DNA of 64,000 nt from positions 89,369 to 153,368 of the forward strand of contig CAZHTM010000001.1 of the NCBI GenBank assembly GCA_964535735.1, given 5' to 3'. Positions 8,070-48,615 of the stretch are shown here, piece by piece. This DNA comes from an uncultured bacterium (lineage in GTDB: Bacteria; Fidelibacterota; Marinisomatia; Marinisomatales; J089). The notes under the pieces were generated by a model. The model saw nothing but the letters and a program-made list of their open reading frames with translations, made no database searches and was not told the DNA's origin. The translations under genes were made by a program, and so were the position numbers. Position 1 is the first letter of the stretch. Each line of letters opens with the position of its first letter.

Positions 8070-8534
8070 CTAAATTACCAGGTTGGCAATTTTCTGGAGC
8101 CATTGAGCGTCCAGATTATTAAAGGCATTTAACTGTGGAGAATCCACATCCAAAACCGCGACCAGTTTACCAGAATGAAAGACCGGCAGCACAATTTCGC
8201 TTTGGGTCTCGGAATCACAGGCAATGTAACCTGGAAATTGGGTGACATCCGGGACAATTAAGGGAGTGCCTGATTCAGCCACCGCACCGCAAACGCCCCT
8301 ACCAAAATCGATGGATCCGCAGGCCAGGACCAGTCCCTGATATGGCCCGATGATCAATCGCCCAGGTTGGACCACGCGATAAAATCCCACAAAAACCCAT
8401 TCCGGAAAAGCACGATATAAGACCGACGCCACCGAGGCCATTTTTCCAATGGTATCCAATTCATAATGACCGGGAGCAAAGAGGGCGTTTAGATCTTGAA
8501 GCGCTTGAGAATATCGTTGTTCTTTGGAAGGCAT
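8070..8534 (-). CDS. msrC: GAF-domain protein, free methionine-(R)-sulfoxide reductase-like (YebR/MsrC type)
   Basis: 154 aa. WVGFYR...GPYQG..AC..I.FGRGVCG...VPDV..FPGHIACD..S.SEIV.P motif series, as in single-GAF fRMsr proteins. Confidence 0.7.
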   Translation of the reverse strand: MPSKEQRYSQALQDLNALFAPGHYELDTIGKMASVASVLYRAFPEWVFVGFYRVVQPGRLIIGPYQGLVLACGSIDFGRGVCGAVAESGTPLIVPDVTQFPGYIACDSETQSEIVLPVFHSGKLVAVLDVDSPQLNAFNNLDAQWLQKIANLVI

Positions 8535-8537
8535 AGT

Positions 8538-10019
8538 TCAGATCAGAAGGTAGAGCGTCATCAGAGCGCCGCTAAATGTGTTCAAAAGGTTAACCATATC
8601 GTTATCCATCCATTTCCAGCCCCGGACGTGAATAGTGGGATATCCATCCAGGGTACGTTTTTCAGTGAGGGTGCCCGTTTTTTCACAGCGATACATTGAT
8701 TGGAGTGTACCACCCAAAATGGAGTCCAGAAGACTTCCTAAAAAACCAGCAACAACTATTACCATGCACAGTTGCCATGAAAGATCATAATACCAACCGA
8801 GGGAAGCTATGACGGTGGCTCCGAGGAAAGCACCTGTAAATCCGAGCATCGTAACGCCTCCCGACATCCCCCGTTCCAATTCACGTCCAGTGAGTATGTG
8901 TCGTGGTTTATGGGAACTAAAAAAACCAATTTCTGTAGCCCAAGTATCCGCCGTGGCCGCGGCGATCGCTCCTAAAAATACCGGATAGTTCCAGGACCAG
9001 GACGGGTAATAAAAATGAATTATTGAAATGACGGTGGCCAATCCGCCATTTGCCAGAACTTGGGTAAAATCCCGTTGTGAACCTTTCTGAGTAAAATGAT
9101 TTTTATGTTGGCCAATACGGGAAAGCAGTGAGCTGAGGATGAAAAAGAGAACAAAGGGTGCGGTCCATTGCCATCCCCCGGAGCCGAAAACGATGATGCC
9201 CATTAAAAAGGCGACTACGCCACCGCTTACACTCAGGGAGCCCAGCCGGATTGACAATCCCAGCAGGAGGGCGGACGCTATCCACCAAATCAGCCACACG
9301 TCCAGGTGATGCAGGACCTGGTTCACGATAAACAGGTCCGTCATGAGTGCCGCTAATAGGGGAACGGAAAGATTATCAGACCCTCGATTGCTAATCCCTT
9401 CTCCAAGCATGACCGTTGCGGCCATCAATAGGGAAAAGATGAATTTGCTTCCTAGGGTTAATAACGCTGAGGTGGCAAAAAGGACAGACGCTAGTAGCGT
9501 GATTACAAAAGCGGTAATAAATACCGCCATGGATCCTTCCAAGGATTTGGTATCCCGCCACAATTGGTAACGATGAGGGGCAGGAATTCTTTGACCGATT
9601 ATAGAACCGGCCGTATCGGCAAACGTCATCATCAATAATCCTACCATGAGGGAAAGTGGACGGGACCATTCAAAATAAACCAGGATTAAGTAGCTTAAGG
9701 GAAAGAAGACGGTGCCGTAACTGATTCGCCCGGTTCCATGCAATCCGGTGAAGACAGATTGTCGCAGAGCCACTAGATTCAATATGATGAAAATCCCGGC
9801 CAGAACCATAGGAGCAGTCGAATTCCGGAAATATAGCGGTGAAATCGAGACTGCAATCCCAACGGCAACATGAACCAATTTCCGAGTAGATTCCGGGGAC
9901 CAGTGGAATCGGTTTCGCGCGAATTCGCTGAGTCCGATAAGTCCACCAATGAGGACCAGAACAACGAAAAAGGTCGCCCAGTCACTTGAAAAGGGTTGAT
10001 AATGATAGAACTGCATCAT
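8538..10019 (-). CDS. fusion: CTP-dependent polyprenol/phytol kinase-like domain (VTE5/DolK family) + DUF92/TMEM19 (VTE6-like) integral membrane domain
   Basis: The N-terminal half has FADTAGSIIGQR...KSLEGSMAVF (SEC59/VTE5-type signature). The C-terminal half has ATADTWATEIG and GMSGGVTMLG (DUF92 signature). Polytopic throughout. Confidence 0.65.
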   Translation of the reverse strand: MMQFYHYQPFSSDWATFFVVLVLIGGLIGLSEFARNRFHWSPESTRKLVHVAVGIAVSISPLYFRNSTAPMVLAGIFIILNLVALRQSVFTGLHGTGRISYGTVFFPLSYLILVYFEWSRPLSLMVGLLMMTFADTAGSIIGQRIPAPHRYQLWRDTKSLEGSMAVFITAFVITLLASVLFATSALLTLGSKFIFSLLMAATVMLGEGISNRGSDNLSVPLLAALMTDLFIVNQVLHHLDVWLIWWIASALLLGLSIRLGSLSVSGGVVAFLMGIIVFGSGGWQWTAPFVLFFILSSLLSRIGQHKNHFTQKGSQRDFTQVLANGGLATVISIIHFYYPSWSWNYPVFLGAIAAATADTWATEIGFFSSHKPRHILTGRELERGMSGGVTMLGFTGAFLGATVIASLGWYYDLSWQLCMVIVVAGFLGSLLDSILGGTLQSMYRCEKTGTLTEKRTLDGYPTIHVRGWKWMDNDMVNLLNTFSGALMTLYLLI

Positions 10020-15113: not shown

Positions 15114-15144
15114 CACCCGGTTGAAATTAGAACGAACGGTTGAT

Positions 15145-15753
15145 ATGACTCTAACTGATAGAAAACTCCGCGAAAAACAGCACCGTATCCAAACTATTTT
15201 GGAAGCGGCCAAGCGCTTGTTTGCCCAAAAAGGGTATCAAGAAACAAGTATGAATGATATTGCCGAGGAAGCAGAACTGGGCAAAGCTACCTTGTATTAC
15301 TATTTTAAATCAAAAGATGATATTTATAGGGAAATTTATTTATCCTACTCACGGACCTATTATGAGTCCATTACTCAGGAAATCCAAAATACATCGACCT
15401 TGGAATCGTTGATTGATGCGATTTTGGTGGGACATGGGAAACAAGGGCAGATGGATCGGGATTTTTTAAGTCTATTGTATCCCATCGGTCGGAACGCACC
15501 GGTTTTTATCTTTAGTGAGCCGGAGGTATTGGCGGTAACCGAAGCCCTAAGAGAACCCATTCGCTTACACATTGAAACGGTGTTTCAACAGGCTGGAATC
15601 CGGACTTCATCGGATATATTTCAAAAAGTGATGTGGAGTTTTATGACCGGTATTGCAGTGAAAATGATCCGCGGCCATGAATGGAAGGACTTGGAACCGG
15701 AAATCCGATTTTTCAAAACCAGTATCATAAACCAATTATTAAAGGAAGTCTGA
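15145..15753 (+). CDS. TetR/AcrR family transcriptional regulator
   Basis: N-terminal HTH ...AKRLFAQKGYQETSMNDIAEEAELGKATLYYYFKSK. ATG 15145 is preferred over the TTG at 15121 given by the ORF track. Confidence 0.85.
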   Translation: MTLTDRKLREKQHRIQTILEAAKRLFAQKGYQETSMNDIAEEAELGKATLYYYFKSKDDIYREIYLSYSRTYYESITQEIQNTSTLESLIDAILVGHGKQGQMDRDFLSLLYPIGRNAPVFIFSEPEVLAVTEALREPIRLHIETVFQQAGIRTSSDIFQKVMWSFMTGIAVKMIRGHEWKDLEPEIRFFKTSIINQLLKEV

Positions 15754-15754
15754 T

Positions 15755-18127
15755 ATGACTTTGACCCGATTTGTTTTAAAACGTCCCGTATTAATCGTGG
15801 GAATTGTTGGTCTGGTTACAGTGCTGTTTTTGCTTCAGATGAAGCATCTCACAATGGATCCGGATATCACCAGCGCCTTACCGAAAAAAATCCCGGCCAA
15901 ACGACTTTATGATCGCATGACGGAGATCTTTCCCACCAAGGAATTTATTTTTCTTGGCATTCAAGGAACGGACATTTTTTCCCCGCAACATTTGCAAGAT
16001 GTTTGGACGTTAACCCAATCGCTGGAACAAGAACCGGAAATTTACAAGGTGATGTCGCCGATGAATGTGAGCATTATTCGGGGAACCGAAGAGGGAATGA
16101 TTGTGGAAGACATTCTGGACGCGCCACCGAAATCAGCTCAGGATATCCAGCGATTTAAAAGTCGACTATTCAACAGTGATTTGGCGTTAGGCAATCTCAT
16201 TTCTCGGGATTCCACAATGTTTGGTATGATGCTGCTGTTAAAGAACACTACGGATGTGGATGACTTTGTTGAGCACTTTATACCCAAGGTGAAAGACTGG
16301 GATAATCAGATGGATCTGAACTTAATCCTGGCAGGAAAACCGGTCGTGAGTCATTATGTTGGTTTAGGAATGCAGCGGGATATGTCCACCTTTTTTATGG
16401 GTGGATTAGGCGTGATCTTTGTGTTATTGCTCATTATTTTCAAAAATCTTAGAGGAATTCTTTTACCCTTGAGTGTGGTTATCCTTTCGGTTATTTGGAC
16501 CATGGGAACCATGGCAATTTTGGGCGTGCCCATGTCGCACTCCACAGAAATCCTGCCCATATTAATTATGGCCATCGCGGTCGCGGATAGTATTCATATC
16601 GTGACCCATTATTATGGCAATGCCCGGAAAATTAAGGATAAGATTGAGCTCACCCGGGCGACCATGGCGGATATGATTTCTCCAGTGATCATGACGTCTT
16701 TGACGACCATGGCGGGATTCTTAGCCTTGGGTACAACCGGCGTCGAATCAATCATGACGCTGGGAATCTTTACATCAGTGGGCGTATTGTATGCCCTCCT
16801 GATCAGTCTCACATTCGTTCCAGCCTGGCTTCGTCTTTTGCCTATTCCGAAACGACTCCAGGCACAGAAAGATGCATCTACAACAGCGCGATTGATGATA
16901 AACTGGGGAAGGGTGTTAAACCAGAATAAACGAGTATTAATTCCGTTTATGATCGTGGTTCTGCTACTGAGTACCTGGGGCTTCAGTCGTCTGAAACATT
17001 CGTTCAGTTCTATCGGGAATTTCCCAGAAGATCACCCAGTCCGAATTGCTCATCAATTAATCAACGACCATTTTGCCGGCACCAATGCTTTTCAGGTCAT
17101 GGTGGAGGGGAAAGAACCGGGCCAAATCAAAGACCCACGGATTTTACGGGATATGGACGGTTTAAAATCGCTTGCCTTACGTCAACCCCATGTAGGATCG
17201 GTTCAATCCCTGGCGGACTTTATCAAACGTATTAACAAAGTACTCCATGAGGATGAGGAGGCATATAATGTCATTCCTAACGATCAGGAAGTGGTGAGCT
17301 ATACGGATTATATTGAGCAGGACGGGGGATGGACAGAGGTGATGGTTCAGGACACCATTCCAGGAAAAGAACTGGTTGCCCAATATCTCACGTTGTATGA
17401 AATGTCGGGGAAACCGGATGACATGGCCAATTTGGTGGACTATAAATACCAGCATGCCAAACTTACTATCCTCATGGATTCTGATGATCAAGCCACGCTA
17501 CGAACCATTGACCGGGTTTTGGATGGTTATATCGACACCCATTTCTCCGATGCGGATGTGGCCGTGACTGGGATGGCGAAGTTGATTTTGGTAGTGGATA
17601 ATTTGATTGTTTCCGGTCAGATCACCAGCATTCTTGTATCCCTATTCCTGGTCTGGTTATTGACCTCATTTATGTTTAAGTCGCCCATAGTGGGATTATT
17701 CAATGCGGTGCCTCTGTTCTTTTCCATTTTGTTAAACTTTATGATTATGGGACTTTCAGGGATTAGGGTTAACCTTGAAACGATGGTTACATCCAGTATT
17801 GCTATTGGAGTTGGAGTCGATTATGCCATTCATTTTATTTATCGATATCGGTTGAAACTGGAGCAGTCCGGTTCCTATGAACAGGCCGTGGTTGATACGA
17901 TGGAAGATTCGGGACTGGCTATTGCGTTTAACAGTTTTGTGGTGGCTGCTGGGTTTGCCGTCATTGCATTATCCCAATTTGTGGCCATCATGGAGATGGG
18001 TGTCCTCATCACCTTAACGATGGCGACTTCGGCCTTTGGTGCGTTGACGGTTTTACCGTTGGTTTTCGTGAATTACCAACCAAAAGCGCTGAAATTGAAA
18101 TCTTCCCAATCAAAGGAAACCAAGTAA
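15755..18127 (+). CDS. MMPL/RND-superfamily exporter (COG1033-type, two 6-TM halves)
   Basis: 790 aa with duplicated TM bundles, each preceded by a large periplasmic loop. Conserved AVADSIH and GVGVDYAIHF motifs. Starts 2 nt after the TetR stop. Confidence 0.85.
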   Translation: MTLTRFVLKRPVLIVGIVGLVTVLFLLQMKHLTMDPDITSALPKKIPAKRLYDRMTEIFPTKEFIFLGIQGTDIFSPQHLQDVWTLTQSLEQEPEIYKVMSPMNVSIIRGTEEGMIVEDILDAPPKSAQDIQRFKSRLFNSDLALGNLISRDSTMFGMMLLLKNTTDVDDFVEHFIPKVKDWDNQMDLNLILAGKPVVSHYVGLGMQRDMSTFFMGGLGVIFVLLLIIFKNLRGILLPLSVVILSVIWTMGTMAILGVPMSHSTEILPILIMAIAVADSIHIVTHYYGNARKIKDKIELTRATMADMISPVIMTSLTTMAGFLALGTTGVESIMTLGIFTSVGVLYALLISLTFVPAWLRLLPIPKRLQAQKDASTTARLMINWGRVLNQNKRVLIPFMIVVLLLSTWGFSRLKHSFSSIGNFPEDHPVRIAHQLINDHFAGTNAFQVMVEGKEPGQIKDPRILRDMDGLKSLALRQPHVGSVQSLADFIKRINKVLHEDEEAYNVIPNDQEVVSYTDYIEQDGGWTEVMVQDTIPGKELVAQYLTLYEMSGKPDDMANLVDYKYQHAKLTILMDSDDQATLRTIDRVLDGYIDTHFSDADVAVTGMAKLILVVDNLIVSGQITSILVSLFLVWLLTSFMFKSPIVGLFNAVPLFFSILLNFMIMGLSGIRVNLETMVTSSIAIGVGVDYAIHFIYRYRLKLEQSGSYEQAVVDTMEDSGLAIAFNSFVVAAGFAVIALSQFVAIMEMGVLITLTMATSAFGALTVLPLVFVNYQPKALKLKSSQSKETK

Positions 18128-18897
18128 TGCGATTCTTCACTGTGATTCTGGCTTTGTCCGGACTAATGATGGCTCAGGATTTAACGGGCTACGACATTAT
18201 GTATCGGGCGCTCAATAAAAAATCCTGGCAGGATATGAAAGCCGACCTTACCCTGACCATGGTGAATGCCCGTGGCGAGGAACGGGTGCGGCAGATCGCT
18301 TTTTATTCCTCGGATAACGCTCAGGGATTAAACCGGATGCTGATGCGATTTATGGCTCCTGCTGATGTGCGCGGGACAGGATTTCTCACCCTGGAAACCT
18401 CCTCCGGCGATGATGAGCGATATCTCTACCTTCCGGCGTTACGCCGGGTCAAAAAAATTGCCGCCAGTGGGAGCGGCGGAAACTTTATGTCCAGTGATTT
18501 TACGTATTATGATATCGGTAAACCAAAATTGGAGGATTGGACGTACACCCTGTTAGGAGAGGAAAAGGTTCAAGGCAAAACGTGCTATAAAATTGAGTGT
18601 CTTCCCATTGATAAACAGGTTTTGAATGATACCGGATATGGAAAAATTATTCGCTGGGTAGAAAAAGAACGTTTAAATACTGTTCAAAGCATCTATTATG
18701 ATAAAAGTCTCGAAGAGTGGAAGCATCTGACGGTCAATCAAACGTTGGAAATTAAAGACATCGATTTTGCTACAGATATGGTGATGGAGGATATTCAAAT
18801 CCAACATCGCAGTCAAATGGTGTTCTCTAACGTGGACGTTGACACCAATATTCCCGACACTTTTTTCAGTATCCGGTATTTGCAACGGGGTCGTTAG
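18127..18897 (+). CDS. outer-membrane lipoprotein-sorting (LolA-like) periplasmic protein
   Basis: Signal peptide plus text typical of the LolA-like partner of COG1033 exporters (YLYLPALRRVKKIAASG...FMSSDFTYYD). TAATG overlap with the exporter gene. Confidence 0.7.
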   Translation: MRFFTVILALSGLMMAQDLTGYDIMYRALNKKSWQDMKADLTLTMVNARGEERVRQIAFYSSDNAQGLNRMLMRFMAPADVRGTGFLTLETSSGDDERYLYLPALRRVKKIAASGSGGNFMSSDFTYYDIGKPKLEDWTYTLLGEEKVQGKTCYKIECLPIDKQVLNDTGYGKIIRWVEKERLNTVQSIYYDKSLEEWKHLTVNQTLEIKDIDFATDMVMEDIQIQHRSQMVFSNVDVDTNIPDTFFSIRYLQRGR

Positions 18898-20138
18898 TGA
18901 AATGGTGGCGTAAAACCGTTGGGCTCATTGTCCTGACCGTCATGGTGTCTGGTCAGTCCTCTTTTGGGGGATACATGAAGGGCTTGGGTTACTATAATCC
19001 TCATTCCGCGTCCTTTGCACGGTTAGGTACCCGATTCCAGGCCCGATGGAGCAATGATAATGGTCGTTCAGGATATTTTGCCGCCTTGAATTTCGAATCT
19101 GATTTTGCTACGATTGCGCAGGATTCTGCAAACCGGAGCCTGTCGACGCCTGATATGCACATAACGCCCGTGGAATTTTATATGGATTATCATTTCTCAT
19201 CGGCTGATTTACGAGTGGGGCAGCAATTCATTTTTTGGGGCGCCACTGATTGGGTGAATCCCACCGATGTTATCAATCCCTGGGATTTTGAGAATCTTTC
19301 CAGTGAAACGGAAGACTATCGAATTCCGGTCCTGGCCGGTTCTCTGATGATGTATTTGGGAAATTATACAATTCAGGCTGTCCTGGTGCCGGCGTTTACC
19401 GCCACAGTAATTCCCATACCACAAGGGACGCATTTGTACCGACCTCCGGTGGACAAAGATCATCTTCAGGGAGGAATCCGGATTCAGAGTTTCGTGGGTG
19501 CCACCGATGTATCGTTCGCCTATTTTTCTGGATTTAATCATTTACCGACATTCCGGTTTACGGGGATGGATTTTTCAACCGGTACGCCGTTCCCAACCTT
19601 TAAGGCCACTTATTCTCGTCAACAGATGGTGGGCGTGGACTTTGTGCGCACGGTAAATCAATTTGCCCTGAAAGGAGAATCCGCATGGCTCATTACACCC
19701 GATAAAAATGGGACCGATATTTTTGAGGACAACGCTTCGGTTGAAACCGTGTTGGGGATGGATTACATCGCGTCGGAAAATTTCAGCCTTAATTTCCAAT
19801 ATATTAACCATACCCTTCTAAAATATTCGCAATCGGAAGAACAAGACCGAATCGATCAAGCCGGTATGACCGGACATTTGATCCCTCCTGAGAAAATGAC
19901 TCATTCCTTCAGTGGCAGACTGGCCTGGGATCCATTTCCCTACATTACCAGTCAGGTAATCGGTGTGTATCATTTGAAAGACCGGGATTCCTTCCTGCTG
20001 GGTTTCTTATCATGGCAACCGCGGGACGCCGTCTCGGTGACGGTTGGGACGGTAATTTTTTCGGGATCGGAATCATCGGAATACGGCCGTCTTGATAATG
20101 AAGATTTGATATTTCTGGAAATTAAACAGTCCTTTTAA
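18897..20138 (+). CDS. probable outer-membrane beta-barrel protein (DUF1302-like partner)
   Basis: GTG start overlapping the upstream stop. Signal peptide, alternating beta-strand pattern, C-terminal ...LEIKQSF (terminal aromatic residue). Confidence 0.5.
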   Translation: MKWWRKTVGLIVLTVMVSGQSSFGGYMKGLGYYNPHSASFARLGTRFQARWSNDNGRSGYFAALNFESDFATIAQDSANRSLSTPDMHITPVEFYMDYHFSSADLRVGQQFIFWGATDWVNPTDVINPWDFENLSSETEDYRIPVLAGSLMMYLGNYTIQAVLVPAFTATVIPIPQGTHLYRPPVDKDHLQGGIRIQSFVGATDVSFAYFSGFNHLPTFRFTGMDFSTGTPFPTFKATYSRQQMVGVDFVRTVNQFALKGESAWLITPDKNGTDIFEDNASVETVLGMDYIASENFSLNFQYINHTLLKYSQSEEQDRIDQAGMTGHLIPPEKMTHSFSGRLAWDPFPYITSQVIGVYHLKDRDSFLLGFLSWQPRDAVSVTVGTVIFSGSESSEYGRLDNEDLIFLEIKQSF

Positions 20139-20218
20139 GTCCATGAAAAGGGCGTTAATTTTCCTGTGGAGTGGGGCAGATAAGTCCCACCTATTTTCTT
20201 TACAAAGGTTGTGAATAC

Positions 20219-21088
20219 ATGAAGGTAGTGCATCGAATTTTAATCATTATTATGGCTCTAGTTGTCGCCGGAGCGATCGTTTGGTCACTGGATAATGCCG
20301 GGAGTTATTATCTGGCTTCAAGTTTGGAACGGCCTCACATGGAGGCGCATAAACTATGGAAACCGGGTGGGCTCTATGGTCACGGGTTAGGCATTATCGG
20401 ATCTTTGATGATCATGCTATTACTCACATACTCAGCACGAAAGCGAATTCGTCGATTTCGGCGCTGGGGTAGGCTGCCAAACTGGTTAAACTATCACATC
20501 TTTTTAGGTATTTCAGGACCATTACTGATTACCCTTCACACATCCTTCAAATTTGGCGGTTTGGTTTCTATTTCTTATTGGTCGATGATGGCGGTGATGC
20601 TGAGCGGGTTTATCGGGCGATATATTTACGTGAAAATTCCCCGGAAAATAAACGGTGAGGAAATGACCCGAAAAGAATTTGAAGCTCATAATGAAGAATT
20701 AAAGGCTCAGTTGGTACAACAATTTCAATTGTCCGCGAATCAGTTAGCCTTGGTTGAGAAAATCGGTGGGGTGGATAAAATAAAGGAACGTGGTCTCCTG
20801 GGAATATTCACTTTTTTCATTATGGATTTATTTAATTGGATTACTCTTAGACGAATTAGCCATCTTGTTTTTAAATCCGCTTCTGTTCCGAAAAAACAGC
20901 GAAAAGAATTTCATCGTTTATTAAGTCAGCGGGTCAAGAGTTCTCGACGGATTGCCTTTCTCCAGGCCGCACAAAAATTATTCCACTATTGGCATGTTAT
21001 TCATAAACCCTTTGCCTATACAATGATTGTGATCATGATTATTCACGTGGCAATGGCCATTACGCTTGGGTATACGTGGATTTTTTAA
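20219..21088 (+). CDS. integral membrane protein, predicted di-haem b (ferric-reductase/NOX-like transmembrane electron carrier)
   Basis: Two TM helices each carry an H-x13-H pair: YHIFLGISGPLLITLH (His codons 20495 and 20537) and IHKPFAYTMIVIMIIH (21002 and 21044). ATG 20219 is preferred over 20171. Confidence 0.5.
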   Translation: MKVVHRILIIIMALVVAGAIVWSLDNAGSYYLASSLERPHMEAHKLWKPGGLYGHGLGIIGSLMIMLLLTYSARKRIRRFRRWGRLPNWLNYHIFLGISGPLLITLHTSFKFGGLVSISYWSMMAVMLSGFIGRYIYVKIPRKINGEEMTRKEFEAHNEELKAQLVQQFQLSANQLALVEKIGGVDKIKERGLLGIFTFFIMDLFNWITLRRISHLVFKSASVPKKQRKEFHRLLSQRVKSSRRIAFLQAAQKLFHYWHVIHKPFAYTMIVIMIIHVAMAITLGYTWIF

Positions 21089-21089
21089 C

Positions 21090-22403
21090 ATGACCATGGA
21101 CAGTATCATCACCTACGGCATCGGTCTGATTATTATTTTGATATTTTTAGTTCCCTACATAATAAGCATGCGAAAAAATGAAAGACGCACGAGGGAACGG
21201 TTGGCGGAGAGTCAATCCAAAGGACAGGCAAAGCCGCTTCTGCAGCATCCCATTATCAATCAATCGGTGTGTATCGGCTGTGGGATTTGCGTCACCAGTT
21301 GCCCGGAAGGGGACGTCCTGGGTTTGATTAATGGAAAAGCCACCATTATTCATGGGAGTCATTGTGTCGGTCATGGACTTTGTGCGGAGAATTGTCCCAT
21401 CGGGGCGATCGAGGTTGGATTGGGCGACATTAGCGAACGTGAAGATATTCCCCGTCTTACAGATCAATTCGAAACCAACATTCCTGGAATTTATATCGTA
21501 GGTGAATTAAGTGGCATGGCATTGATCCGCAATGCCATAACCCACGGAGTGACAGCCATGAATGCCATCGCTGAATCGCTAAACGGGGCACCGGGTTTGG
21601 ATACATCCGTAGCGATTATTGGCGCCGGACCTTCCGGTCTGTCCGCTGCTTTAAAAGCCAAAGAATTGGGCATTGATTTTCAAATTCTAGATCAAGATAA
21701 ACCTGGAGGGACGATCCTACAATATCCCCGGAAAAAACTGACCTTGGTCCAGCGAGTGACCATACCCCTCTATGGTGATTTAACCCGCGGGGAATATACA
21801 AAGGAAGAATTGCTGGATATTTGGGAGTCGATGATTGAAAAGAATGCCATTGATTTGAAGACGGGACACAAACTGCTGGGTGTGGAACGAAATGATACCG
21901 GTTTTAAGATAAAAACATCCAAAGGGGAGTTGACCGCGGAGAAAGTGATCTTAGCCCTGGGACGGCGGGGTACACCGCGGAAATTGAATGTCCCTGGTGA
22001 AGATTTGGGCAAAGTGATGTATAAACTCATGGATGCGGAAACCTATAAGAACAATCACATTCTTGTAGTGGGAGGCGGCGATAGCGCCATCGAGGCAGCA
22101 ATTGGATTGGCCAGCCAAGCCGGGAACACGGTAACCATCTCGTATCGAAAAGAGCATTTCTTTCGTCTCAAAGCGCGAAATGAAAAAAATATTGAGCTCT
22201 TCATGAATGAGAAGAAATTGGATGTTATCTTCTCCTCGAATGTGAAGGAGATTACTCCGGATTCAGTCAGTGTAGCCATCGGCGAAGAGGTCAAAACGAT
22301 ACCCAATGATTACGTCTTTATTTTTGCAGGTGGTGAATTACCCTTCCCCTTATTGGATTCCATCGGGATTGATTTTGGCAAAAAAATCCGTGCGAAAGTG
22401 TGA
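21090..22403 (+). CDS. membrane-anchored 2x[4Fe-4S] ferredoxin-domain NAD(P)/FAD-dependent oxidoreductase
   Basis: N-terminal TM helix followed by RKNERRTRER. CIGCGICVTSCP and CVGHGLCAENCP. Rossmann motifs IIGAGPSGLSAA and VVGGGDSAIEAA. Starts 1 nt after the upstream stop. Confidence 0.75.
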   Translation: MTMDSIITYGIGLIIILIFLVPYIISMRKNERRTRERLAESQSKGQAKPLLQHPIINQSVCIGCGICVTSCPEGDVLGLINGKATIIHGSHCVGHGLCAENCPIGAIEVGLGDISEREDIPRLTDQFETNIPGIYIVGELSGMALIRNAITHGVTAMNAIAESLNGAPGLDTSVAIIGAGPSGLSAALKAKELGIDFQILDQDKPGGTILQYPRKKLTLVQRVTIPLYGDLTRGEYTKEELLDIWESMIEKNAIDLKTGHKLLGVERNDTGFKIKTSKGELTAEKVILALGRRGTPRKLNVPGEDLGKVMYKLMDAETYKNNHILVVGGGDSAIEAAIGLASQAGNTVTISYRKEHFFRLKARNEKNIELFMNEKKLDVIFSSNVKEITPDSVSVAIGEEVKTIPNDYVFIFAGGELPFPLLDSIGIDFGKKIRAKV

Positions 22404-22404
22404 G

Positions 22405-23817
22405 ATGATGAAAAAAACTCTGTTTTTCTGTCTCTGTTTATTCGTTCCCTGGCAAGTCTTTGGCCAGTTTAGTCCCGGTAAATTATCCCGGTATCATGCG
22501 GAGTTGGAGGGTACATCCAATTGTATTCAATGCCATGATATAGGGAAGAAGGAAGTCTCGGATGGTTGTCAAAAATGCCATACTCCTTTATTAAAACGGA
22601 TTAAGGAAAAGACAGGATATCATGCGGATAAGGCCGATGGATGTAAAGATTGCCATTCCGACCATAACGGAAGAGAATTTGAATTGGTGTATTGGCCTAA
22701 GAACATTAAAAACTTTAATCACAACGAAACCGGATACACACTTTCAGGGAAACACCGGGATGCGAAATGTCGTGATTGTCACCAGCCAAAATATATTCAG
22801 GATAAGGAATTAATAAAATGGGCGGGTGAACATCCTCAGTTTAATATCATGGATCGAACATTTTTAGGATTGGGGACGGAATGTCTGACCTGCCATGAGG
22901 ATGTGCACAGGGATGAAGTATCCGATGACTGCACAAAATGCCATAATACATTTGATTGGAAAAAAGCCGCCGACGAATTTGATCATAACCAGGCGCGTTT
23001 TCTGTTGACCGGTGCTCACGAAAAAGTGAAGTGTGGGAAATGCCATAAAATCCCTGACAATACAAAAAAAGTATGGCAATTAACAGGGATGGCCTTTGAT
23101 CAGTGCGGGCGGTGTCATGACGATGTACATAAGGGCAGTTTTGGATCAACCTGCGAACGGTGCCACACAACAGTGGATTGGAAAAAGAACCAGAAACGGT
23201 TCGATCACAACAGTACCAAGTATCCTCTAGTGGGAAAACATGTCAACGTAGCATGTCAGGATTGTCACACACCTCAATTGCAAGGAACCTTACCCAAATT
23301 TGATTTGTGTAGTCGCTGCCATGCTGACGAACATGATGGCCAGTTCCTGACACGAGCGGAAGGTGGTGAATGTTCTCAATGCCATACAGTGTATGCCTTT
23401 AAGCCCACGACCTTTACAATGTCCATGCATCAAGCCATTCGCTTTACATTGGAGGGCGCGCATCGTGCTGTACCCTGTATCGCCTGCCACAAACCGTACA
23501 TGAAAAAGGACGGAAATACAACAGTGAGATTTACGTGGACGAATCTCCAGTGCACTACCTGTCATAAAGATGAACACAGGAATCAATTTCAGGCGCATTT
23601 TAATAATTCCTGTGATAAATGTCATACAGTCATAACATTTTCACAGATTAACTTTGATCATCAGGCAACCACTTTTCCCTTGGATGGGAAACATCAAAAC
23701 GTCCCTTGCGAAAAATGTCACTTCAAAGAAACCGATTCAGTAGGAGAGTATATTCGATATTATCCAGTAGCCCATCGCTGTGTGGATTGTCACTCCATCA
23801 CCGATCAAATACAGTAA
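22405..23817 (+). CDS. multihaem c-type cytochrome, 17 CxxCH, built from c7-like trihaem units
   Basis: Signal peptide MMKKTLFFCLCLFVPWQVFG. 17 CxxCH counted in the translation. Repeated unit CxxCH-D-H...CxxCH...W...F-H....L-G-H....CxxCH. The ATG immediately follows the upstream TGA. Confidence 0.9.
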   Translation: MMKKTLFFCLCLFVPWQVFGQFSPGKLSRYHAELEGTSNCIQCHDIGKKEVSDGCQKCHTPLLKRIKEKTGYHADKADGCKDCHSDHNGREFELVYWPKNIKNFNHNETGYTLSGKHRDAKCRDCHQPKYIQDKELIKWAGEHPQFNIMDRTFLGLGTECLTCHEDVHRDEVSDDCTKCHNTFDWKKAADEFDHNQARFLLTGAHEKVKCGKCHKIPDNTKKVWQLTGMAFDQCGRCHDDVHKGSFGSTCERCHTTVDWKKNQKRFDHNSTKYPLVGKHVNVACQDCHTPQLQGTLPKFDLCSRCHADEHDGQFLTRAEGGECSQCHTVYAFKPTTFTMSMHQAIRFTLEGAHRAVPCIACHKPYMKKDGNTTVRFTWTNLQCTTCHKDEHRNQFQAHFNNSCDKCHTVITFSQINFDHQATTFPLDGKHQNVPCEKCHFKETDSVGEYIRYYPVAHRCVDCHSITDQIQ

Positions 23818-23833
23818 GGGATCAAAACCGACC

Positions 23834-26374
23834 GTGAACCGATATTTCATCCGGATTCTCGGAGTTCTCTCCCTGGGGATAATATTGTCTGTTGCGCTTG
23901 GACAACAATCCGCCATCGAAGTGAGTGGGTATGATTGTGGTGATTGTCATGGGGCTACCGGTTGGGATATCCTTGAATTCTCAGGTTTTTCCCACCAAAG
24001 CACAGGATTTCTATTAGAAGGCGCTCACGCGGCCCAACCATGTTATGCCTGCCATACGGGAAATACTTTGAGTGAGAAGCATCAATTTCAAGACGTGAAT
24101 ACAGTCTGTTCTTCCTGCCATCTGGATATCCACCAATCCACGTTGGGAGAGGATTGTACTTTTTGTCATGAATTCACCAGTTGGCAAGTAACCCAGAAGA
24201 CCTTTAACCACGAAACCACCCGGTTTCCTTTACAAGGCGCCCATCGGGGAATCGCCTGTGATCAATGCCATACGGAACATCCCATGACGCGCTTTGATTT
24301 TGTGGACACGGATTGTTTTGCCTGTCATCAAACAGATTATAATCGGGCGTTGAATCCTTCACATGTTTTGGCTCGTTTTAACCGGGATTGTCGGATCTGC
24401 CACACCGATCATCGGGCTGGGTGGCGGCCTTCCTTGTTTGATCATGCCGATACCGATTTTCTACTGACCGGAGTGCACATTGTTACGGAATGCGCTGAAT
24501 GTCATATAAATGGCCAATTTGAAGACACTCCTGAGTCCTGTCAGGCGGCCAATTGCCACTTCAACGATTTCCAAACCACCGATTCACCCAACCACATGAT
24601 CTATGGATATCCGGAGCAATATTGTGAAGAATGTCATGTAACCTTAGGATGGACGCCTTCTATTTACACGCATACCATTGATTATGCGTGCAGTTCTTGT
24701 CATATCCCCGATTTTCAGAATGCGCTTAATCCGATCCATAACGTTGAAAATGGATTTAGCACCAATTGTGAAGGATGTCATGTCGACGTAGAATCGTGGG
24801 CCGGGGCAACCTTCGATCATAGCAACGTTGAAATAGGTTCATGCGCCTCCTGCCATTTATCGAATTATAACGCCACCACCAGCCCTAACCATTCTGCTGC
24901 TGGATTTTCTACAAATTGTACATTATGTCATCAATCTACGTCCGATTGGCAACAGGTTCTTTTCGACCATGATCCTGCAATCACTATTCCGTGTTCGGAC
25001 TGCCATATGTCGGATTATAACGAGACCGCATCCAATCCTTCCATACCAAATCATGTGGATTCCGGTTTTTCCACCGATTGTACTCAGTGTCACACATCCA
25101 CATCTGATTGGGCTCAAATAAACTTCGACCATACGTCGGTGAGCATACCCTGCGCGGACTGTCATATGCCCGATTACAATAATTTACCTAACGCTACCTA
25201 TCCTAATGCGCCGAATCACGCTGAACTGGGTTTAACCACCGATTGTACGATCTGCCACAATTCCACGTCCGATTGGACCGACGTTACCTTCAGTCATACT
25301 TCGGTGGACAACCTTCCTTGCGCCGACTGTCATTTGAATCAGTATAATAATACCACTGATCCTGATCATGGCGCTTCCGGGTTTACCACCGACTGTACCC
25401 AGTGCCATACGTCAACATCGGATTGGACACAAGTGAACTTTGATCATAATCTGGTGACCGTTCCTTGCGCCGATTGCCACATGCCGGACTACAATAACAC
25501 CGCCAATTCGTCCAATCCCGATGTTCCCAATCATGTGGATTCAGGATTTACTACTGATTGCACACAATGCCATGTGTCCACATCGGACTGGTCGCAGGTT
25601 GATTTTAACCATGCCACGGTGACCGCGCCTTGCGCCGACTGTCACATGCCCGATTACAATAATTTACCGAACGCTACCTATCCCGACGCCCCGAATCATG
25701 CTGATTTAGGACTATCCACCGATTGTACGATCTGCCACAATTCCACGACTGACTGGACGGATGTTACTTTCACCCATACTTCAGTATCCGATATCCCTTG
25801 TGCTGATTGTCATTTAAATCAATATAACAACACAACCGACCCTAATCATTCCGCTTCCGGATTTTCCACGGATTGTACGCTTTGTCATAATTCCACATCC
25901 GACTGGTTAGATGTCACGTTTGATCATAGCAATATTTCACAACCCTGTGCTGATTGCCATTTGGAAGATTATAATTCAGCTATAAATCCGAATCACATTT
26001 CTCAGCAATACCCCACGACCTGTGAAGATTGTCACACAACTACTTCCTGGACTCCGGCCGACTTCGATCATGACACCCAGTATTTTCCCATATATTCTGG
26101 TAAGCATGATAATGAATGGTCCACATGCACAGCAGAATGCCATATCAACCCTTCTGAGTATTCCGTATTCTCCTGTGGATTAAATGGCGTATGCCATGAA
26201 CATGATCGGGCTAGCATGGACGATAAGCACCAGGGTGAGGTTAGTGGATATGTGTACGAAAGCAATGCCTGTTACAATTGTCACCCTGATGGGACAGAAG
26301 AAGGAGGGGATGGCGATGAAGGGGGTGATATCATCCGTGACTGGCGGGACCATATCAAGCGAATTCGGAAATAG
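23834..26374 (+). CDS. giant multihaem c-type cytochrome, 28 canonical CxxCH plus CX4CH and CX3CH variants; paired-CXXCH module array
   Basis: A GTG 23834 start gives signal-like VNRYFIRILGVLSLGIILSVALGQQ (the ORF-track ATG 23780 would overlap the upstream gene). Motifs were counted directly in the translation. Confidence 0.9.
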   Translation: MNRYFIRILGVLSLGIILSVALGQQSAIEVSGYDCGDCHGATGWDILEFSGFSHQSTGFLLEGAHAAQPCYACHTGNTLSEKHQFQDVNTVCSSCHLDIHQSTLGEDCTFCHEFTSWQVTQKTFNHETTRFPLQGAHRGIACDQCHTEHPMTRFDFVDTDCFACHQTDYNRALNPSHVLARFNRDCRICHTDHRAGWRPSLFDHADTDFLLTGVHIVTECAECHINGQFEDTPESCQAANCHFNDFQTTDSPNHMIYGYPEQYCEECHVTLGWTPSIYTHTIDYACSSCHIPDFQNALNPIHNVENGFSTNCEGCHVDVESWAGATFDHSNVEIGSCASCHLSNYNATTSPNHSAAGFSTNCTLCHQSTSDWQQVLFDHDPAITIPCSDCHMSDYNETASNPSIPNHVDSGFSTDCTQCHTSTSDWAQINFDHTSVSIPCADCHMPDYNNLPNATYPNAPNHAELGLTTDCTICHNSTSDWTDVTFSHTSVDNLPCADCHLNQYNNTTDPDHGASGFTTDCTQCHTSTSDWTQVNFDHNLVTVPCADCHMPDYNNTANSSNPDVPNHVDSGFTTDCTQCHVSTSDWSQVDFNHATVTAPCADCHMPDYNNLPNATYPDAPNHADLGLSTDCTICHNSTTDWTDVTFTHTSVSDIPCADCHLNQYNNTTDPNHSASGFSTDCTLCHNSTSDWLDVTFDHSNISQPCADCHLEDYNSAINPNHISQQYPTTCEDCHTTTSWTPADFDHDTQYFPIYSGKHDNEWSTCTAECHINPSEYSVFSCGLNGVCHEHDRASMDDKHQGEVSGYVYESNACYNCHPDGTEEGGDGDEGGDIIRDWRDHIKRIRK
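25151..25945 (+). repeat. in-frame tandem duplication inside the 28-haem gene (480-bp / 160-aa six-haem period)
   Basis: Modules A (25151-25318), B (25319-25465) and C (25466-25630), then A' (25631-25798) and B' (25799-25945). tgcgc.gactgtca.atgcccgattacaataattta recurs exactly 480 bp apart. Confidence 0.85.
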
Positions 26375-26377
26375 AGT

Positions 26378-27196
26378 ATGTCGTATTCAGCGATTATTCT
26401 CATGGTTGTATTGGCTGGAAGTCCTCAATTGGAATTGACCGATATACCTTGTTCTAAATGTCACACTCCCGATGCCTGGATTCCTCTAAATACCAATCGG
26501 ACATTTAATCATTCCAGGGATACACTATTTCCCCTTGAAGGTCGCCATCGTGATGCCGATTGTCTTCAATGCCATCCTGGTGAAACAACGGTAGAAATTC
26601 ATGCATTTGCCAAAGCCCGGCCCGAGTGTACAACCTGCCACATGGATATCCACATGAATCAACTCGGATCGGAATGTGATCGATGCCACACAACAGAAAC
26701 TTGGGACATGAGCCGGTGGACGAATAATCATAGTCATACAATTTTTACATTGGATGGGATGCACGCGTCCCTGGAATGCCGGGACTGTCATGGCATCAAT
26801 TTTGACCGTCTGGCAGGTCAACTAACGACAGATTGTTATATGTGCCATCAGCAAAGTTTTGTGGCTGCGATCAATGCTATCGATCTCGATCATCCTGAAA
26901 ATCAAAATTGCCGCTTATGTCACAATAGTCGTGCCTGGGTTCCTATTGATATGTCGCAGCACGATTCCCTATTTCCCATTTATTCAGGAGCACATAGAGG
27001 AAAGTGGACCACCTGTAAAGCTGAATGCCATATTGATCCGACCAATTACCAATTATTTTCTTGCGGCCTGAACGGTGTATGTCATGAACATGACAAGGAT
27101 AAAATGGACCAAAAGCACCTGGGGGAAGTAAGTAATTATAGTTACAATAGCTCCAGATGTTATGATTGTCATAGCAGCGGTGGAGGAGGCGATTAA
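26378..27196 (+). CDS. octahaem c-type cytochrome (8 CxxCH + CX3CH), periplasmic
   Basis: Signal-like N-terminus. 8 CxxCH counted. The C-terminal ~75 aa are paralogous to the C-terminus of the 28-haem protein. Starts 4 nt after the upstream stop. Confidence 0.9.
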   Translation: MSYSAIILMVVLAGSPQLELTDIPCSKCHTPDAWIPLNTNRTFNHSRDTLFPLEGRHRDADCLQCHPGETTVEIHAFAKARPECTTCHMDIHMNQLGSECDRCHTTETWDMSRWTNNHSHTIFTLDGMHASLECRDCHGINFDRLAGQLTTDCYMCHQQSFVAAINAIDLDHPENQNCRLCHNSRAWVPIDMSQHDSLFPIYSGAHRGKWTTCKAECHIDPTNYQLFSCGLNGVCHEHDKDKMDQKHLGEVSNYSYNSSRCYDCHSSGGGGD

Positions 27197-28738
27197 ATGA
27201 AATTTTTCAGTTTATGTGTAAGTCTACTAATCCTAAGCTCATTGGGTTGGTCTCAGGAACGGGTGGTAATCGACGTGAATGGCAAAATCACCTACTTAAC
27301 TACCGATCAAGTGTATTGCGATGTGGGCACTGAAGTGGGTGTGGAAGAAGGGGATACCCTTCATGTTACTCGGGGAGTCGACGAAATCGGATTGGTAGTG
27401 GTTACGTATATATCCCGAAAGTCCAGTGTTTGCGAGCCCTTGGTTCCTGCTGAGACTTTTCGATTGGGAGACCGGGTCCATCTGAAGAAAGTCAAACTGG
27501 TGACTATAGAAGAGACAACGGTAACACCGGCTCAAGTAAAGGAGGTCTCTCCCGTCAGTAAAAGACTGGGCCTAGCTCATACAGGCAATTTTTCGTTCCG
27601 CTATACCTATGGACAGTTTGCAGATAGTCTGTATAGTCAACGGAGTATCGCCTCTATCCAATACGGAATACACATATCCAATCCCATTGAAACCCAATTT
27701 TGGTTGTATGGGCGTTCCAATATACAGAACCGGGATTTCACACTTTACCAGGCACGGTGGGTTTTGGGGAAAGAGGACAGCCGCTTTAACGGTCAGCTCG
27801 GCAGAGTTTATTCTGCTTCTTTGTCCGGGATTGGAGCTACCGATGGTTTGTTGGTGAATTCGGCGTTATCGGAACGCCTATCAGCTGGTTTTTTAGTGGG
27901 GATGGAACCGGAACCCACCACACTTAAGTTTAATTCCAATGTCAAAAAAGGGGGTATTTTTACCCGGTTTGAGACGAAAGGGGAAAAACGATCTTTTGAG
28001 GGAAGTCTGGCTTTGGTGGGCCAATATGCCAGTGGGAAGGCTGATCGAGAATTCATATACGACCGTCTGCGATATCGAAATGGGCGACGACTGTATTTTA
28101 CCATGAACCAGACTATTGACTTATATCGAAATGGTCCTGTCGGCGGCCGGAAAGGGATTGAACTGGTGTCCAATCAACTATCACTTCGGGTGCGGGTCAC
28201 ATCATTTTTAAGTGTCTATACCCGACTCTCCAACCGGAAACAAATCCTTTACCAGGTTTCAAGTTCTTCGCTCCCGGATTCGCTGTTTGTAGATGAAACT
28301 CGGTCAGGCTGGTACAACGCCATTCGGTGGACGACAAAAGGGGACCGGTCGTTTCTCCTGGGAGCCAATTACCGGTATCAATCAGTAGGTGGTAGTAACT
28401 CAATCTATGCGTTTTTCACCTATCGCGGACCCTATTCCCGCGGGCGATGGAATTTTGATTATACCGGCAGCTACATTCACAATTTGCTGATTACTGGTAC
28501 ACGCAATCAATTCGGCTTCTCCCGGACTATAGGGAAGACGGGAACGTTCTTTACCGAATACGAGCTCTATGTGTATGGATATGGCAATATCATGACAGAT
28601 TATGTTCAACATAATATTACGTCCACCTATTCATGGAGATTGCAGTCCCGGATGGTAATAACCGCATCATTGGATGCGACGATTGATAAGGATTATTATT
28701 TCTATTATTTGTATTTCGGATTTAATTACCGGTTTTAG
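27197..28738 (+). CDS. outer-membrane beta-barrel protein with N-terminal soluble domain (porin-like partner of the cytochromes)
   Basis: The ATG abuts the upstream TAA. Signal peptide MKFFSLCVSLLILSSLGWSQ. Long amphipathic beta-strand pattern rich in Y/G/R/N/S. C-terminus YLYFGFNYRF (OMP-type terminal Phe). Confidence 0.6.
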   Translation: MKFFSLCVSLLILSSLGWSQERVVIDVNGKITYLTTDQVYCDVGTEVGVEEGDTLHVTRGVDEIGLVVVTYISRKSSVCEPLVPAETFRLGDRVHLKKVKLVTIEETTVTPAQVKEVSPVSKRLGLAHTGNFSFRYTYGQFADSLYSQRSIASIQYGIHISNPIETQFWLYGRSNIQNRDFTLYQARWVLGKEDSRFNGQLGRVYSASLSGIGATDGLLVNSALSERLSAGFLVGMEPEPTTLKFNSNVKKGGIFTRFETKGEKRSFEGSLALVGQYASGKADREFIYDRLRYRNGRRLYFTMNQTIDLYRNGPVGGRKGIELVSNQLSLRVRVTSFLSVYTRLSNRKQILYQVSSSSLPDSLFVDETRSGWYNAIRWTTKGDRSFLLGANYRYQSVGGSNSIYAFFTYRGPYSRGRWNFDYTGSYIHNLLITGTRNQFGFSRTIGKTGTFFTEYELYVYGYGNIMTDYVQHNITSTYSWRLQSRMVITASLDATIDKDYYFYYLYFGFNYRF

Positions 28739-48329: not shown

Positions 48330-48422
48330 GGGAATGAGTGTGAGGCTGGTGCCCGCCGCGGTCTTCAAAACCGTTGTCCCCAGCAATCCTGGGGAGCTGG
48401 GTTCGATTCCCAGGCGTTCCCG
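48330..48422 (+). tRNA. selC: tRNA-Sec (anticodon UCA)
   Basis: Hand fold, element by element. Acceptor stem 48330-48337 / 48414-48421 (7 bp plus a basal A-G). D stem of 6 bp with one bulged A, and a UGGU loop (48340-48356). Anticodon stem GCGGU/ACCGU with loop CUUCAAA (TCA at 48365-48367). Variable arm of 7 bp, UCCCCAG/CUGGGGA. T arm CUGGG-UUCGAUU-CCCAG. Discriminator G. CCA is not encoded. Confidence 0.7.
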
Positions 48423-48615
48423 CAGATCGTGTAAATTGCACGGAATTTATTATTTCATGTATGGATAGGAACGTTATCAGGTGATTCCCAGCCTGTCCTT
48501 CAAAGCCTCGAAAGGCGTAGAAGGAGCGTTCCCGCAAAAACAATCGTCCCTGGTGTGTTGCCTAAATATGTTTTTGTAAAGGACTTCACGCGAAGGCATA
48601 TCGCGTGATGATCGT

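Follow-up and report, generated by a model that had tools for sequence, protein, structure and literature searches.

The window analysed in this study, i.e. the whole stretch of 64,000 nucleotides (nt) from contig CAZHTM010000001.1 of an uncultured Fidelibacterota bacterium, carries the gene of a 28-haem multihaem cytochrome c (MHC28; 23834..26374, + strand, 846 amino acids), in which a unit of three dihaem modules is found as two in-frame tandem copies. The protein contains 28 CxxCH motifs together with one CxxxCH (CTAECH) and one CxxxxCH (CQAANCH) motif, and a density of about 30 residues per haem and a hydrophobic N-terminus, serving as signal or anchor, mark it as a multihaem cytochrome c. 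It was matched above cut-off by the Pfam families Cytochrome_C7, Cytochrom_c3_2 and Cytochrom_CIII, and the N-terminal part of the protein matches Cytochrome_C7 with 97 bits. The mechanically derived open reading frame (23780..26374, +, 864 amino acids) starts at the GTG at 23780, which leads to a 38-nt overlap with the upstream cytochrome gene, and the JGI and NCBI gene calls (P0001, P0199 and P0201) begin at the GTG at 23834, which results in a typical signal peptide.

From residue 355 onwards the haem motifs of MHC28 alternate every 24-31 residues and thereby form dihaem modules, so that the C-terminal two-thirds of the protein is an array of modules of about 50 amino acids in the order M1, C', A, B, C, A', B', M8. 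Module alignments have shown two CxxCH motifs, two further invariant histidines, a proline and a tryptophan in each module, with the consensus CxxCH-x(11-17)-H-x(8)-CxxCH-x5-W-x(6)-H; two CxxCH motifs and two invariant histidines are what the bis-histidine ligation of two haems requires. All modules are encoded on the + strand. The array starts with the B-like module M1 (24842..24991, 50 amino acids), followed by copy 1 of the duplicated unit, C'-A-B (24992..25465, 474 nt, six CxxCH), which consists of C' (24992-25150, 53 amino acids), A (25151-25318, 56 amino acids) and B (25319-25465, 49 amino acids). Copy 2, C-A'-B' (25466..25945, 480 nt, six CxxCH), consists of C (25466-25630, 55 amino acids), A' (25631-25798, 56 amino acids) and B' (25799-25945, 49 amino acids), and the last module of the array is M8 (25946..26095, 50 amino acids). 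The C-terminal tail domain (26096..26371, +) has the conserved pattern FPIYSGKH...CTAECH...CGLNGVCHEH...CYNCHP and also occurs in the 8-haem cytochrome next to MHC28 and in many giant cytochromes. A preliminary description of this DNA had given the module boundaries and sizes, the number of CxxCH motifs and several peptides, and all of these proved exact. The array is composed of 14% Thr, 11% Asp, 11% Ser and 10% Asn, and all 17 N-x-S/T sequons of MHC28 are located within it (24842-25945, residues 355-722) and none elsewhere. In a segment with about 46% of these four residues the sequons could be compositional, or they may be a sign that this part is exposed on the surface and glycosylated.

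The segment 24300-26200 was compared with itself at every offset, and the highest identity was found at an offset of 480 nt (78.7% over 300 nt from 25148). The next-best offsets are the module periods of 165 nt (65%) and 315 nt (62%), and out-of-frame offsets gave at most 36% identity. The offset-480 diagonal extends over about 450 nt, rising at about 25010-25040 and fading at about 25460-25490, which corresponds to one full unit against the next. The two units abut at 25465/25466, C' is shorter than C by a two-residue deletion, and for each of the modules C', A and B the partner at +480 is the best intragenic protein match. C'-A-B and C-A'-B' are thus confirmed as a real in-frame tandem duplication, whatever its age, of a three-module unit of about 160 amino acids with six haem sites. 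An in-frame 480-bp duplication adding six haem sites had been proposed in the preliminary description, with a self dot-plot as the check, and the 480-nt diagonal, which is present and dominant, has borne this out. Tandem Repeats Finder did not report any repeat in 23000-27500, the divergence between the copies being too great for it.

The three module pairs differ in their degree of similarity. A and A' are 86% identical at the protein and 82% at the DNA level, whereas the values are 73% and 69% for B/B' and 72% and 68% for C'/C. For the whole unit against the whole unit the identity is 77% (protein) and 73% (DNA), with a third-position identity of 48%, and the third-position identity of B/B' and C'/C (about 40%) is that of the background. 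Hence, the earlier statement that both A/A' and B/B' are highly similar holds for A/A' and is overstated for B/B'. As the DNA identity of B/B' is not distinctive, these two modules are paired on the grounds of their protein identity and equal length, the CADCHLNQYNNTTDP motif common to both, and colinearity.

Orthologues were gathered through a genome-contig scan and through the neighbours of the outer-membrane barrel protein which is predicted to be encoded downstream of MHC28. The top 120 full-length matches were rejected as orthologues, since most of them belong to another family with triheme repeats at about 30% identity and only 4 of the 120 carry the tail motif. A homologue search with the C-terminal 142 amino acids returned solely short, partial proteins and no full-length orthologues. 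The best non-identical homologue is P0002 (NOZ75512.1, 887 amino acids, 30 CxxCH, 72% identity) from a metagenome-assembled genome (MAG) of a Fibrobacterota-Chlorobiota-Bacteroidota (FCB) group bacterium. Its locus, L001, has the module order M1-X-Y-A-B-C-A'-B'-M8. In BLAST it runs colinear with the window in both flanks of the array and from 25148 onwards, the sole length difference being located within 24932-25147. The orthologous arrays share 84% protein and 75% DNA identity and the barrel proteins 76%. The orthologous modules are 90% (B/B), 82% (B'/B'), 82% (C/C) and 88% (A'/A') identical at the protein level, so that the B of the window has a nearer relative in the B of the orthologue (90%) than in the B' of the same protein (73%). 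A second lineage, at about 59% identity to the window protein and with the order M1-C'-A-B-C-C-C-A'-A'-B'-M8, comprises L041 (ENA contig, 1006 amino acids, 34 CxxCH) and L004. The contig of a third lineage, L040 (Neomarinimicrobiota MAG), begins inside C and continues with A'-B'-M8 and the tail. In a neighbour-joining tree of 27 modules, the B modules of the three lineages form one clade, the B' modules another and the C modules a third.

The higher similarity of A and A' is concentrated in two patches of A on the + strand, which are putative gene-conversion tracts. Patch 1 (25151..25204; partner in A' 25631-25684) is identical at 51 of 54 nt, and patch 2 (25235..25267; partner in A' 25715-25747) contains an exact match of 32 nt. 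The third-position identity of A/A' is 14/18 in patch 1, as against 6-8/18 in the orthologue comparisons, and 11/11 in patch 2. Taking both patches together, 25 of the 29 third positions are identical in the A/A' pair of the window, whereas at the same positions the A/A' pair of the orthologue has 11/29, and the values are 11-13/29 when both cross-species pairs are included. Outside the two patches A and A' are as diverged as the other module pairs. Of the 7 sites which join the A and A' of the window to the exclusion of those of the orthologue, 5 lie in the patches, and 6 of the 7 sites supporting orthology lie between and after them. A binomial test on the third positions in the patches gave about 2e-4, and a run of 32 nt had P = 0.019 in a permutation which keeps the mismatch numbers per codon position. 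The patches look like short gene-conversion tracts which arose after speciation in this lineage; A and A' would then look young because these tracts have re-homogenised parts of both modules.

The strength of this signal is modest (P about 0.02), and constraint on codons or on the motif could be contributing to it. Taken alone, such structural or codon constraint on the module type could produce the extra A/A' similarity with no conversion at all, an explanation which bears on the conversion step and leaves the duplication untouched. The A-type modules are well conserved across species (88% protein identity between the A' of the window and that of the orthologue), and the run-length test reached merely P = 0.019, both of which fit with constraint. 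On the other hand, the excess concerns synonymous third positions (25/29), is limited to the two patches and is absent in the A/A' pair of the orthologue (11/29) as well as in the cross-species pairs. Constraint without conversion is thus considered rather unlikely.

These results can be brought together in the following course of events. Unequal recombination between adjacent modules, as the simplest mechanism, would have produced an in-frame tandem copy of a block C-A-B of about 480 bp (160 amino acids, six haem sites), giving M1-[C'-A-B]-[C-A'-B']-M8. The event would be older than the divergence from two or more other Fidelibacterota/FCB lineages, and purifying selection would then have kept both copies. 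Short gene-conversion tracts may later have re-homogenised parts of A and A' in the lineage of the window, and the same process would be continuing in the relatives, where one lineage has gained one module and another three, and where the cluster family as a whole spans 20-44 haems. Taken as a whole, this history of an old three-module tandem duplication, purifying selection, later A/A' conversion and continued duplication in relatives is considered very probable.

A few observations weigh against this history. The DNA identity of B/B' (69%) is no higher than that of B/C or B/C' (69%), and the module tree is noisy, the modules having just 49-56 amino acids. Further, in L001 the place of C' is taken by two different modules (X-Y), which leaves the ancestral state of copy 1 partly ambiguous. 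Such points leave some room for a course in which no single three-module event took place and several single-module duplications and/or conversion between modules happen to give the 480-nt register. The second half of B is like the C-type modules and the second half of B' like the A or M1 type, M1 is 69% identical to B', and B is no nearer to B' than to C in its DNA; moreover, single-module duplications can be demonstrated in the L041 lineage (C three times, A' twice). As against this, three modules in a row find their reciprocal best matches in a single register, the diagonal of about 450 nt is unbroken across the module boundaries, and the length classes 53/55, 56/56 and 49/49 recur in order. 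A stepwise origin of this kind is therefore held to be improbable, and the duplication of the three modules as one block is preferred.

The age of the duplication was approached through the proportion of synonymous differences (pS) and the synonymous (dS) and nonsynonymous (dN) distances between module pairs, calculated by the Nei-Gojobori method. The pS values of 0.81 (B/B') and 0.93 (C'/C) indicate saturated synonymous sites, and for A/A' a pS of 0.58 and a dS of about 1.1 were obtained. Dating by dS in absolute terms was rejected, as synonymous sites are saturated. The dN between module pairs is 0.07-0.21 and dN/dS, where it can be measured (A/A'), is about 0.07; both copies of the unit appear to be kept under purifying selection. 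Saturated silent sites and the colinear arrangement shared with the orthologues point to an old duplication, which would have taken place before two or more further lineages of Fidelibacterota/FCB separated from that of the window. In the lineages sharing the duplication, the other proteins of the gene cluster are merely 61-76% identical. The preliminary description had called the duplication recent, i.e. a late product of unequal recombination whose units differ mainly at silent sites, and had suggested dN/dS for A/A' and B/B' as a check. The A/A' pair, with 86% protein and 82% DNA identity, an exact match of 32 nt and a dN/dS of about 0.07, is the part of the gene which fits with such an origin. 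The units as a whole are only 73% identical in DNA, with pS between 0.58 and 0.93; B/B' and C'/C combine saturation with 27-28% protein divergence; orthologues with 72% and about 59% identity have the arrangement in colinear form, and orthologous modules are nearer than paralogous ones, as seen for B. A recent origin is thus contradicted and extremely unlikely.

The copy number in the window gene is supported by independent contigs. The JGI contig L002 (7267 nt) is 99.945% identical to the positions 20592-27858 of the window in a comparison without gaps, and the cluster at 90% identity contains 846-amino-acid copies on contigs of 7 kb and 46 kb (JGI) and 238 kb (NCBI). On a fourth contig (5.7 kb, JGI; P0198 and P0200) the gene is frameshifted inside C' into parts of 428 and 402 amino acids with the same modules; this split gene also has a few amino acid differences, and the frameshift reflects a sequencing error or else marks a pseudogene variant. 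Among these four contigs of the population (at least 90% identity) no strain-level variation in the number of modules was found. The longest exact word common to the two units has 32 nt, which makes the units too distinct to collapse in normal assemblies. As far as the four assemblies show, the copy number of the window gene is fixed and reliable in this population. That the repeat was made or mis-sized by a short-read assembler, as happened in relatives (L004 and L040, described below), is extremely unlikely, since the window copies are 68-82% identical with a longest shared word of 32 nt, four contigs from JGI and NCBI assemblies have the same modules, and the orthologues share the same backbone.

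In the relatives the effect of younger repeats on assembly can be seen directly. L004 has a scaffold gap of 100 N (8512-8611) inside three tandem C modules which are 86-89% identical. The same 55 nt stand on each side of this gap. In L041, which has no gap, the two flanks overlap by precisely this stretch, and the gap is therefore a false join at the repeat; it splits the cytochrome gene into two frames in that MAG. The contig L040 terminates inside module C. The assembly problem at such repeats, of which the preliminary description had warned, is thus seen in these relatives, whereas a collapse is unlikely for the window gene. As younger repeats break short-read scaffolds, haem counts of this family derived from MAGs need to be used with care.

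Between species the number of modules does vary. The comparison of orthologues for module number, which had been recommended earlier, gave 28, 30 and 34 CxxCH in the close orthologues, so that the expected variation in copy number is found between species and not, on the evidence of four assemblies, within the population. Haem counts were listed for 17 loci from the genome scan and the neighbour look-ups. The downstream cytochrome of the cluster has 8 haems in every one of the 17 loci and the upstream one has 17 (sometimes 20, and 14 in one locus), whereas the middle cytochrome, i.e. the counterpart of MHC28, has 20, 23, 28, 30, 31, 32, 34, 40 or 44. In the L041 lineage, single-module duplications account for three C and two A' modules, and more distant orthologues have one to three dihaem modules at most. 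A profile built from nine modules of the window was run on representative proteins and matched 1329 of them at E ≤ 0.001 and 636 at E ≤ 1e-10, with 3-42 matched stretches per protein among the best 150 listed. Module amplification is thus the usual way in which this superfamily evolves. Three further observations were made on related proteins. P0072 (L008, 4084-6789), a more distant orthologue from the same type of cluster, has an independent tandem duplication of a different unit of about 175 amino acids, with six CxxCH and one CxxxxCH. In P0207 (1987 amino acids) the conserved C-terminal tail domain occurs three times, twice at internal positions, and the protein looks like three complete cytochromes of the superfamily fused head to tail. 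The haem counts of the giant cytochromes at about 30% identity (P0003-P0120) cluster at 40, 43, 46, 49, 52, 55, 58 and 61, and these three-haem steps suggest that their family grows by triheme units.

MHC28 is part of a conserved six-part cluster (20171-28738, all genes on the + strand) which is found in Fidelibacterota (Marinimicrobia). The first gene (20171..21088) encodes a putative inner-membrane protein of 305 amino acids (289 from an internal Met) with about 5 hydrophobic helices, two WX3HX13H motifs (W105-H109-H123 and W274-H278-H292) and SGFIG145. A simple hydropathy scan gave 4-5 hydrophobic segments, so that the helix count is approximate. The pair of WX3HX13H motifs and SGxxG are kept upstream in 10 of 11 related loci, and the protein has no match to any Pfam or NCBIfam model. 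The second gene (21066..22403) encodes a protein which combines a membrane-anchored 2x[4Fe-4S] ferredoxin with an FAD/NAD(P) pyridine-nucleotide-disulphide oxidoreductase, and it is followed by the upstream multihaem cytochrome (22405..23817, 470 amino acids, 17 CxxCH). Downstream of MHC28 lies the gene for the 8-haem cytochrome (26378..27196, 272 or 264 amino acids), which is without the module array. It can be aligned to the N-terminal head of MHC28 (32% identity over residues 15-272 in the 846-amino-acid form) and to its tail (residues about 741-826, about 60% over the last 85 residues), and MHC28 looks like an expanded paralogue of this neighbour. The last gene (27197..28738) encodes a predicted outer-membrane protein of 513 amino acids, which has a signal peptide and, in the AlphaFold model (predicted local distance difference test score, pLDDT, of 83), consists of a small N-terminal beta domain and a 22-strand barrel; its C-terminal residues are YRF. 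The Foldseek matches of this model are all outer-membrane barrels (ushers and porins) with a template modelling (TM) score below 0.5, and no Pfam or NCBIfam family matches the protein. NCBIfam gave no match above cut-off for any protein of the cluster.

A number of known systems are close to this gene cluster in one or another respect. An inner-membrane component of about 300 amino acids with two WX3HX13H motifs, SGXXG and five transmembrane helices is a hallmark of the porin-cytochrome systems PCC3 and PCC4, and the PCC3 cytochromes have very many haems, few residues per haem, small residues of the Thr/Ser type and haem-bearing internal repeats (He et al. 2017, PMC5566968). The inner-membrane protein of the window corresponds to this description in its size of about 300 amino acids, its two WX3HX13H motifs and SGXXG, with the helix count being approximate, and the modelled barrel would supply the outer-membrane gene of such a system. 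Further likeness to PCC3 lies in the combination of a barrel-type outer-membrane protein with very large multihaem cytochromes having haem-carrying repeats and few residues per haem, and in the Thr/Ser-rich composition of the MHC28 array. In contrast, PCC3 is found in Proteobacteria and the window cluster in Fidelibacterota/FCB MAGs; the window cluster has three cytochromes (17, 28 and 8 haems) rather than two, and an additional Fe-S/FAD oxidoreductase which recalls PCC4 subgroup II. One of the cytochromes of a PCC3/PCC4-type cluster is expected to be extracellular and one periplasmic; signal-like N-termini are what the window sequences show in this respect. Judged by motifs, composition and gene content, the cluster resembles PCC3-type porin-cytochrome conduits. 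It differs from MtrCAB and OmaB-OmbB-OmcB (Pcc) in its far larger haem numbers and in its barrel, which is without a Pfam or NCBIfam match and has ushers and general porins as best structural matches. The MtrA/DmsE decahaem family TIGR03508 gave 74.9 bits on MHC28 against a cut-off of 192.2, so that MHC28 does not qualify as a member.

The building of a haem wire by tandem repetition of a small multihaem domain is a feature which MHC28 shares with the c7-type polymer cytochromes of Geobacter, for example the dodecahaem GSU1996, and with the domains Cytochrome_C7 (Pfam) and nanowire_3heme (NCBIfam). The repeat of MHC28 differs from these in being a dihaem module of 49-56 amino acids with a consensus of its own. 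The c7-type triheme nanowire repeat TIGR04257 has no match to MHC28, and its match to the upstream cytochrome is weak (17 bits versus a cut-off of 40). In the Burkholderiales clusters with OmbB-like porins, the larger "type 2" cytochrome varies in haem motifs between close genomes, and these cytochromes have been read as molecular wires (Arbour et al. 2020, PMC7399161). The variation of haem number beside a conserved porin is common to both cases, whereas the phylum and the cytochrome family are different, and that study does not follow the history of duplication down to single modules. The gain of haems through whole haem-binding peptide modules has been termed "grafting and pruning" (Soares, Paquete and Louro; bioRxiv 10.1101/2025.05.29.656830), and MHC28 agrees with it in gaining haems by whole modules; it differs in that the modules come from their own neighbours by tandem duplication and that patches of concerted evolution are present. 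Hence, repeat-built multihaem wires, differences of haem number between orthologues beside a porin and modular haem gain have already been described elsewhere, and a literature search on multihaem cytochromes of Marinimicrobia, Fidelibacterota and SAR406 did not find any paper describing this cluster.

By analogy with these systems, MHC28 may be the variable-length haem wire of an electron conduit of the porin-cytochrome type. Such a conduit would consist of a b-haem-like inner-membrane protein, the Fe-S flavoprotein, the cytochromes with 17, 28 and 8 haems and the 22-strand outer-membrane barrel. According to a value cited in PMC5566968, the 10 haems of MtrA span about 100 Å; at this ratio the six added haems would make the wire roughly 5-6 nm longer, provided that the array is linear. 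Some findings tell against the conduit, whose function and cellular location remain putative. The barrel resembles ushers and porins generically only (TM below 0.5), and MHC28 is matched by no solved structure or curated family by sequence: a sequence search of the PDB with the whole protein gave nothing meaningful, and a profile of 17 modules gave E = 0.008 at best, with an unrelated peptide. The AlphaFold2 model of the 846-amino-acid protein is unusable (mean pLDDT 28, predicted TM score 0.16, alignment of 4 sequences).

A more specific proposal is put forward tentatively, and it is more likely to be wrong than right. The five- or six-gene cluster may be an undescribed outer-membrane conduit of Fidelibacterota (Marinimicrobia/SAR406 relatives), with the middle cytochrome as its sole length-adjustable part, tuned by duplication and partly homogenised by conversion. 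If this is true, a length-adjustable middle cytochrome would point to selection on the length of the wire, for example for reaching past a cell-surface layer. MHC28 provides a clean example of the way in which giant multihaem cytochromes may gain haems, i.e. by in-frame duplication of whole dihaem modules with subsequent purifying selection and, probably, patchy gene conversion, in a conserved porin-cytochrome-like cluster where only one of three cytochromes varies much in length. Our study also puts a candidate cluster for extracellular electron transfer on record for Fidelibacterota/Marinimicrobia.

The region directly upstream of the cluster (15121-20138) encodes a TetR regulator, a transporter of the MMPL/RND type, a LolA-like protein and a DUF1302 protein, of which the MMPL, LolA-like and DUF1302 genes are syntenic in L041. 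The sole RNA gene detected in the window is a selenocysteine tRNA gene at 48330-48423 (Rfam tRNA-Sec, 62.7 bits; anticodon TCA by ARAGORN).

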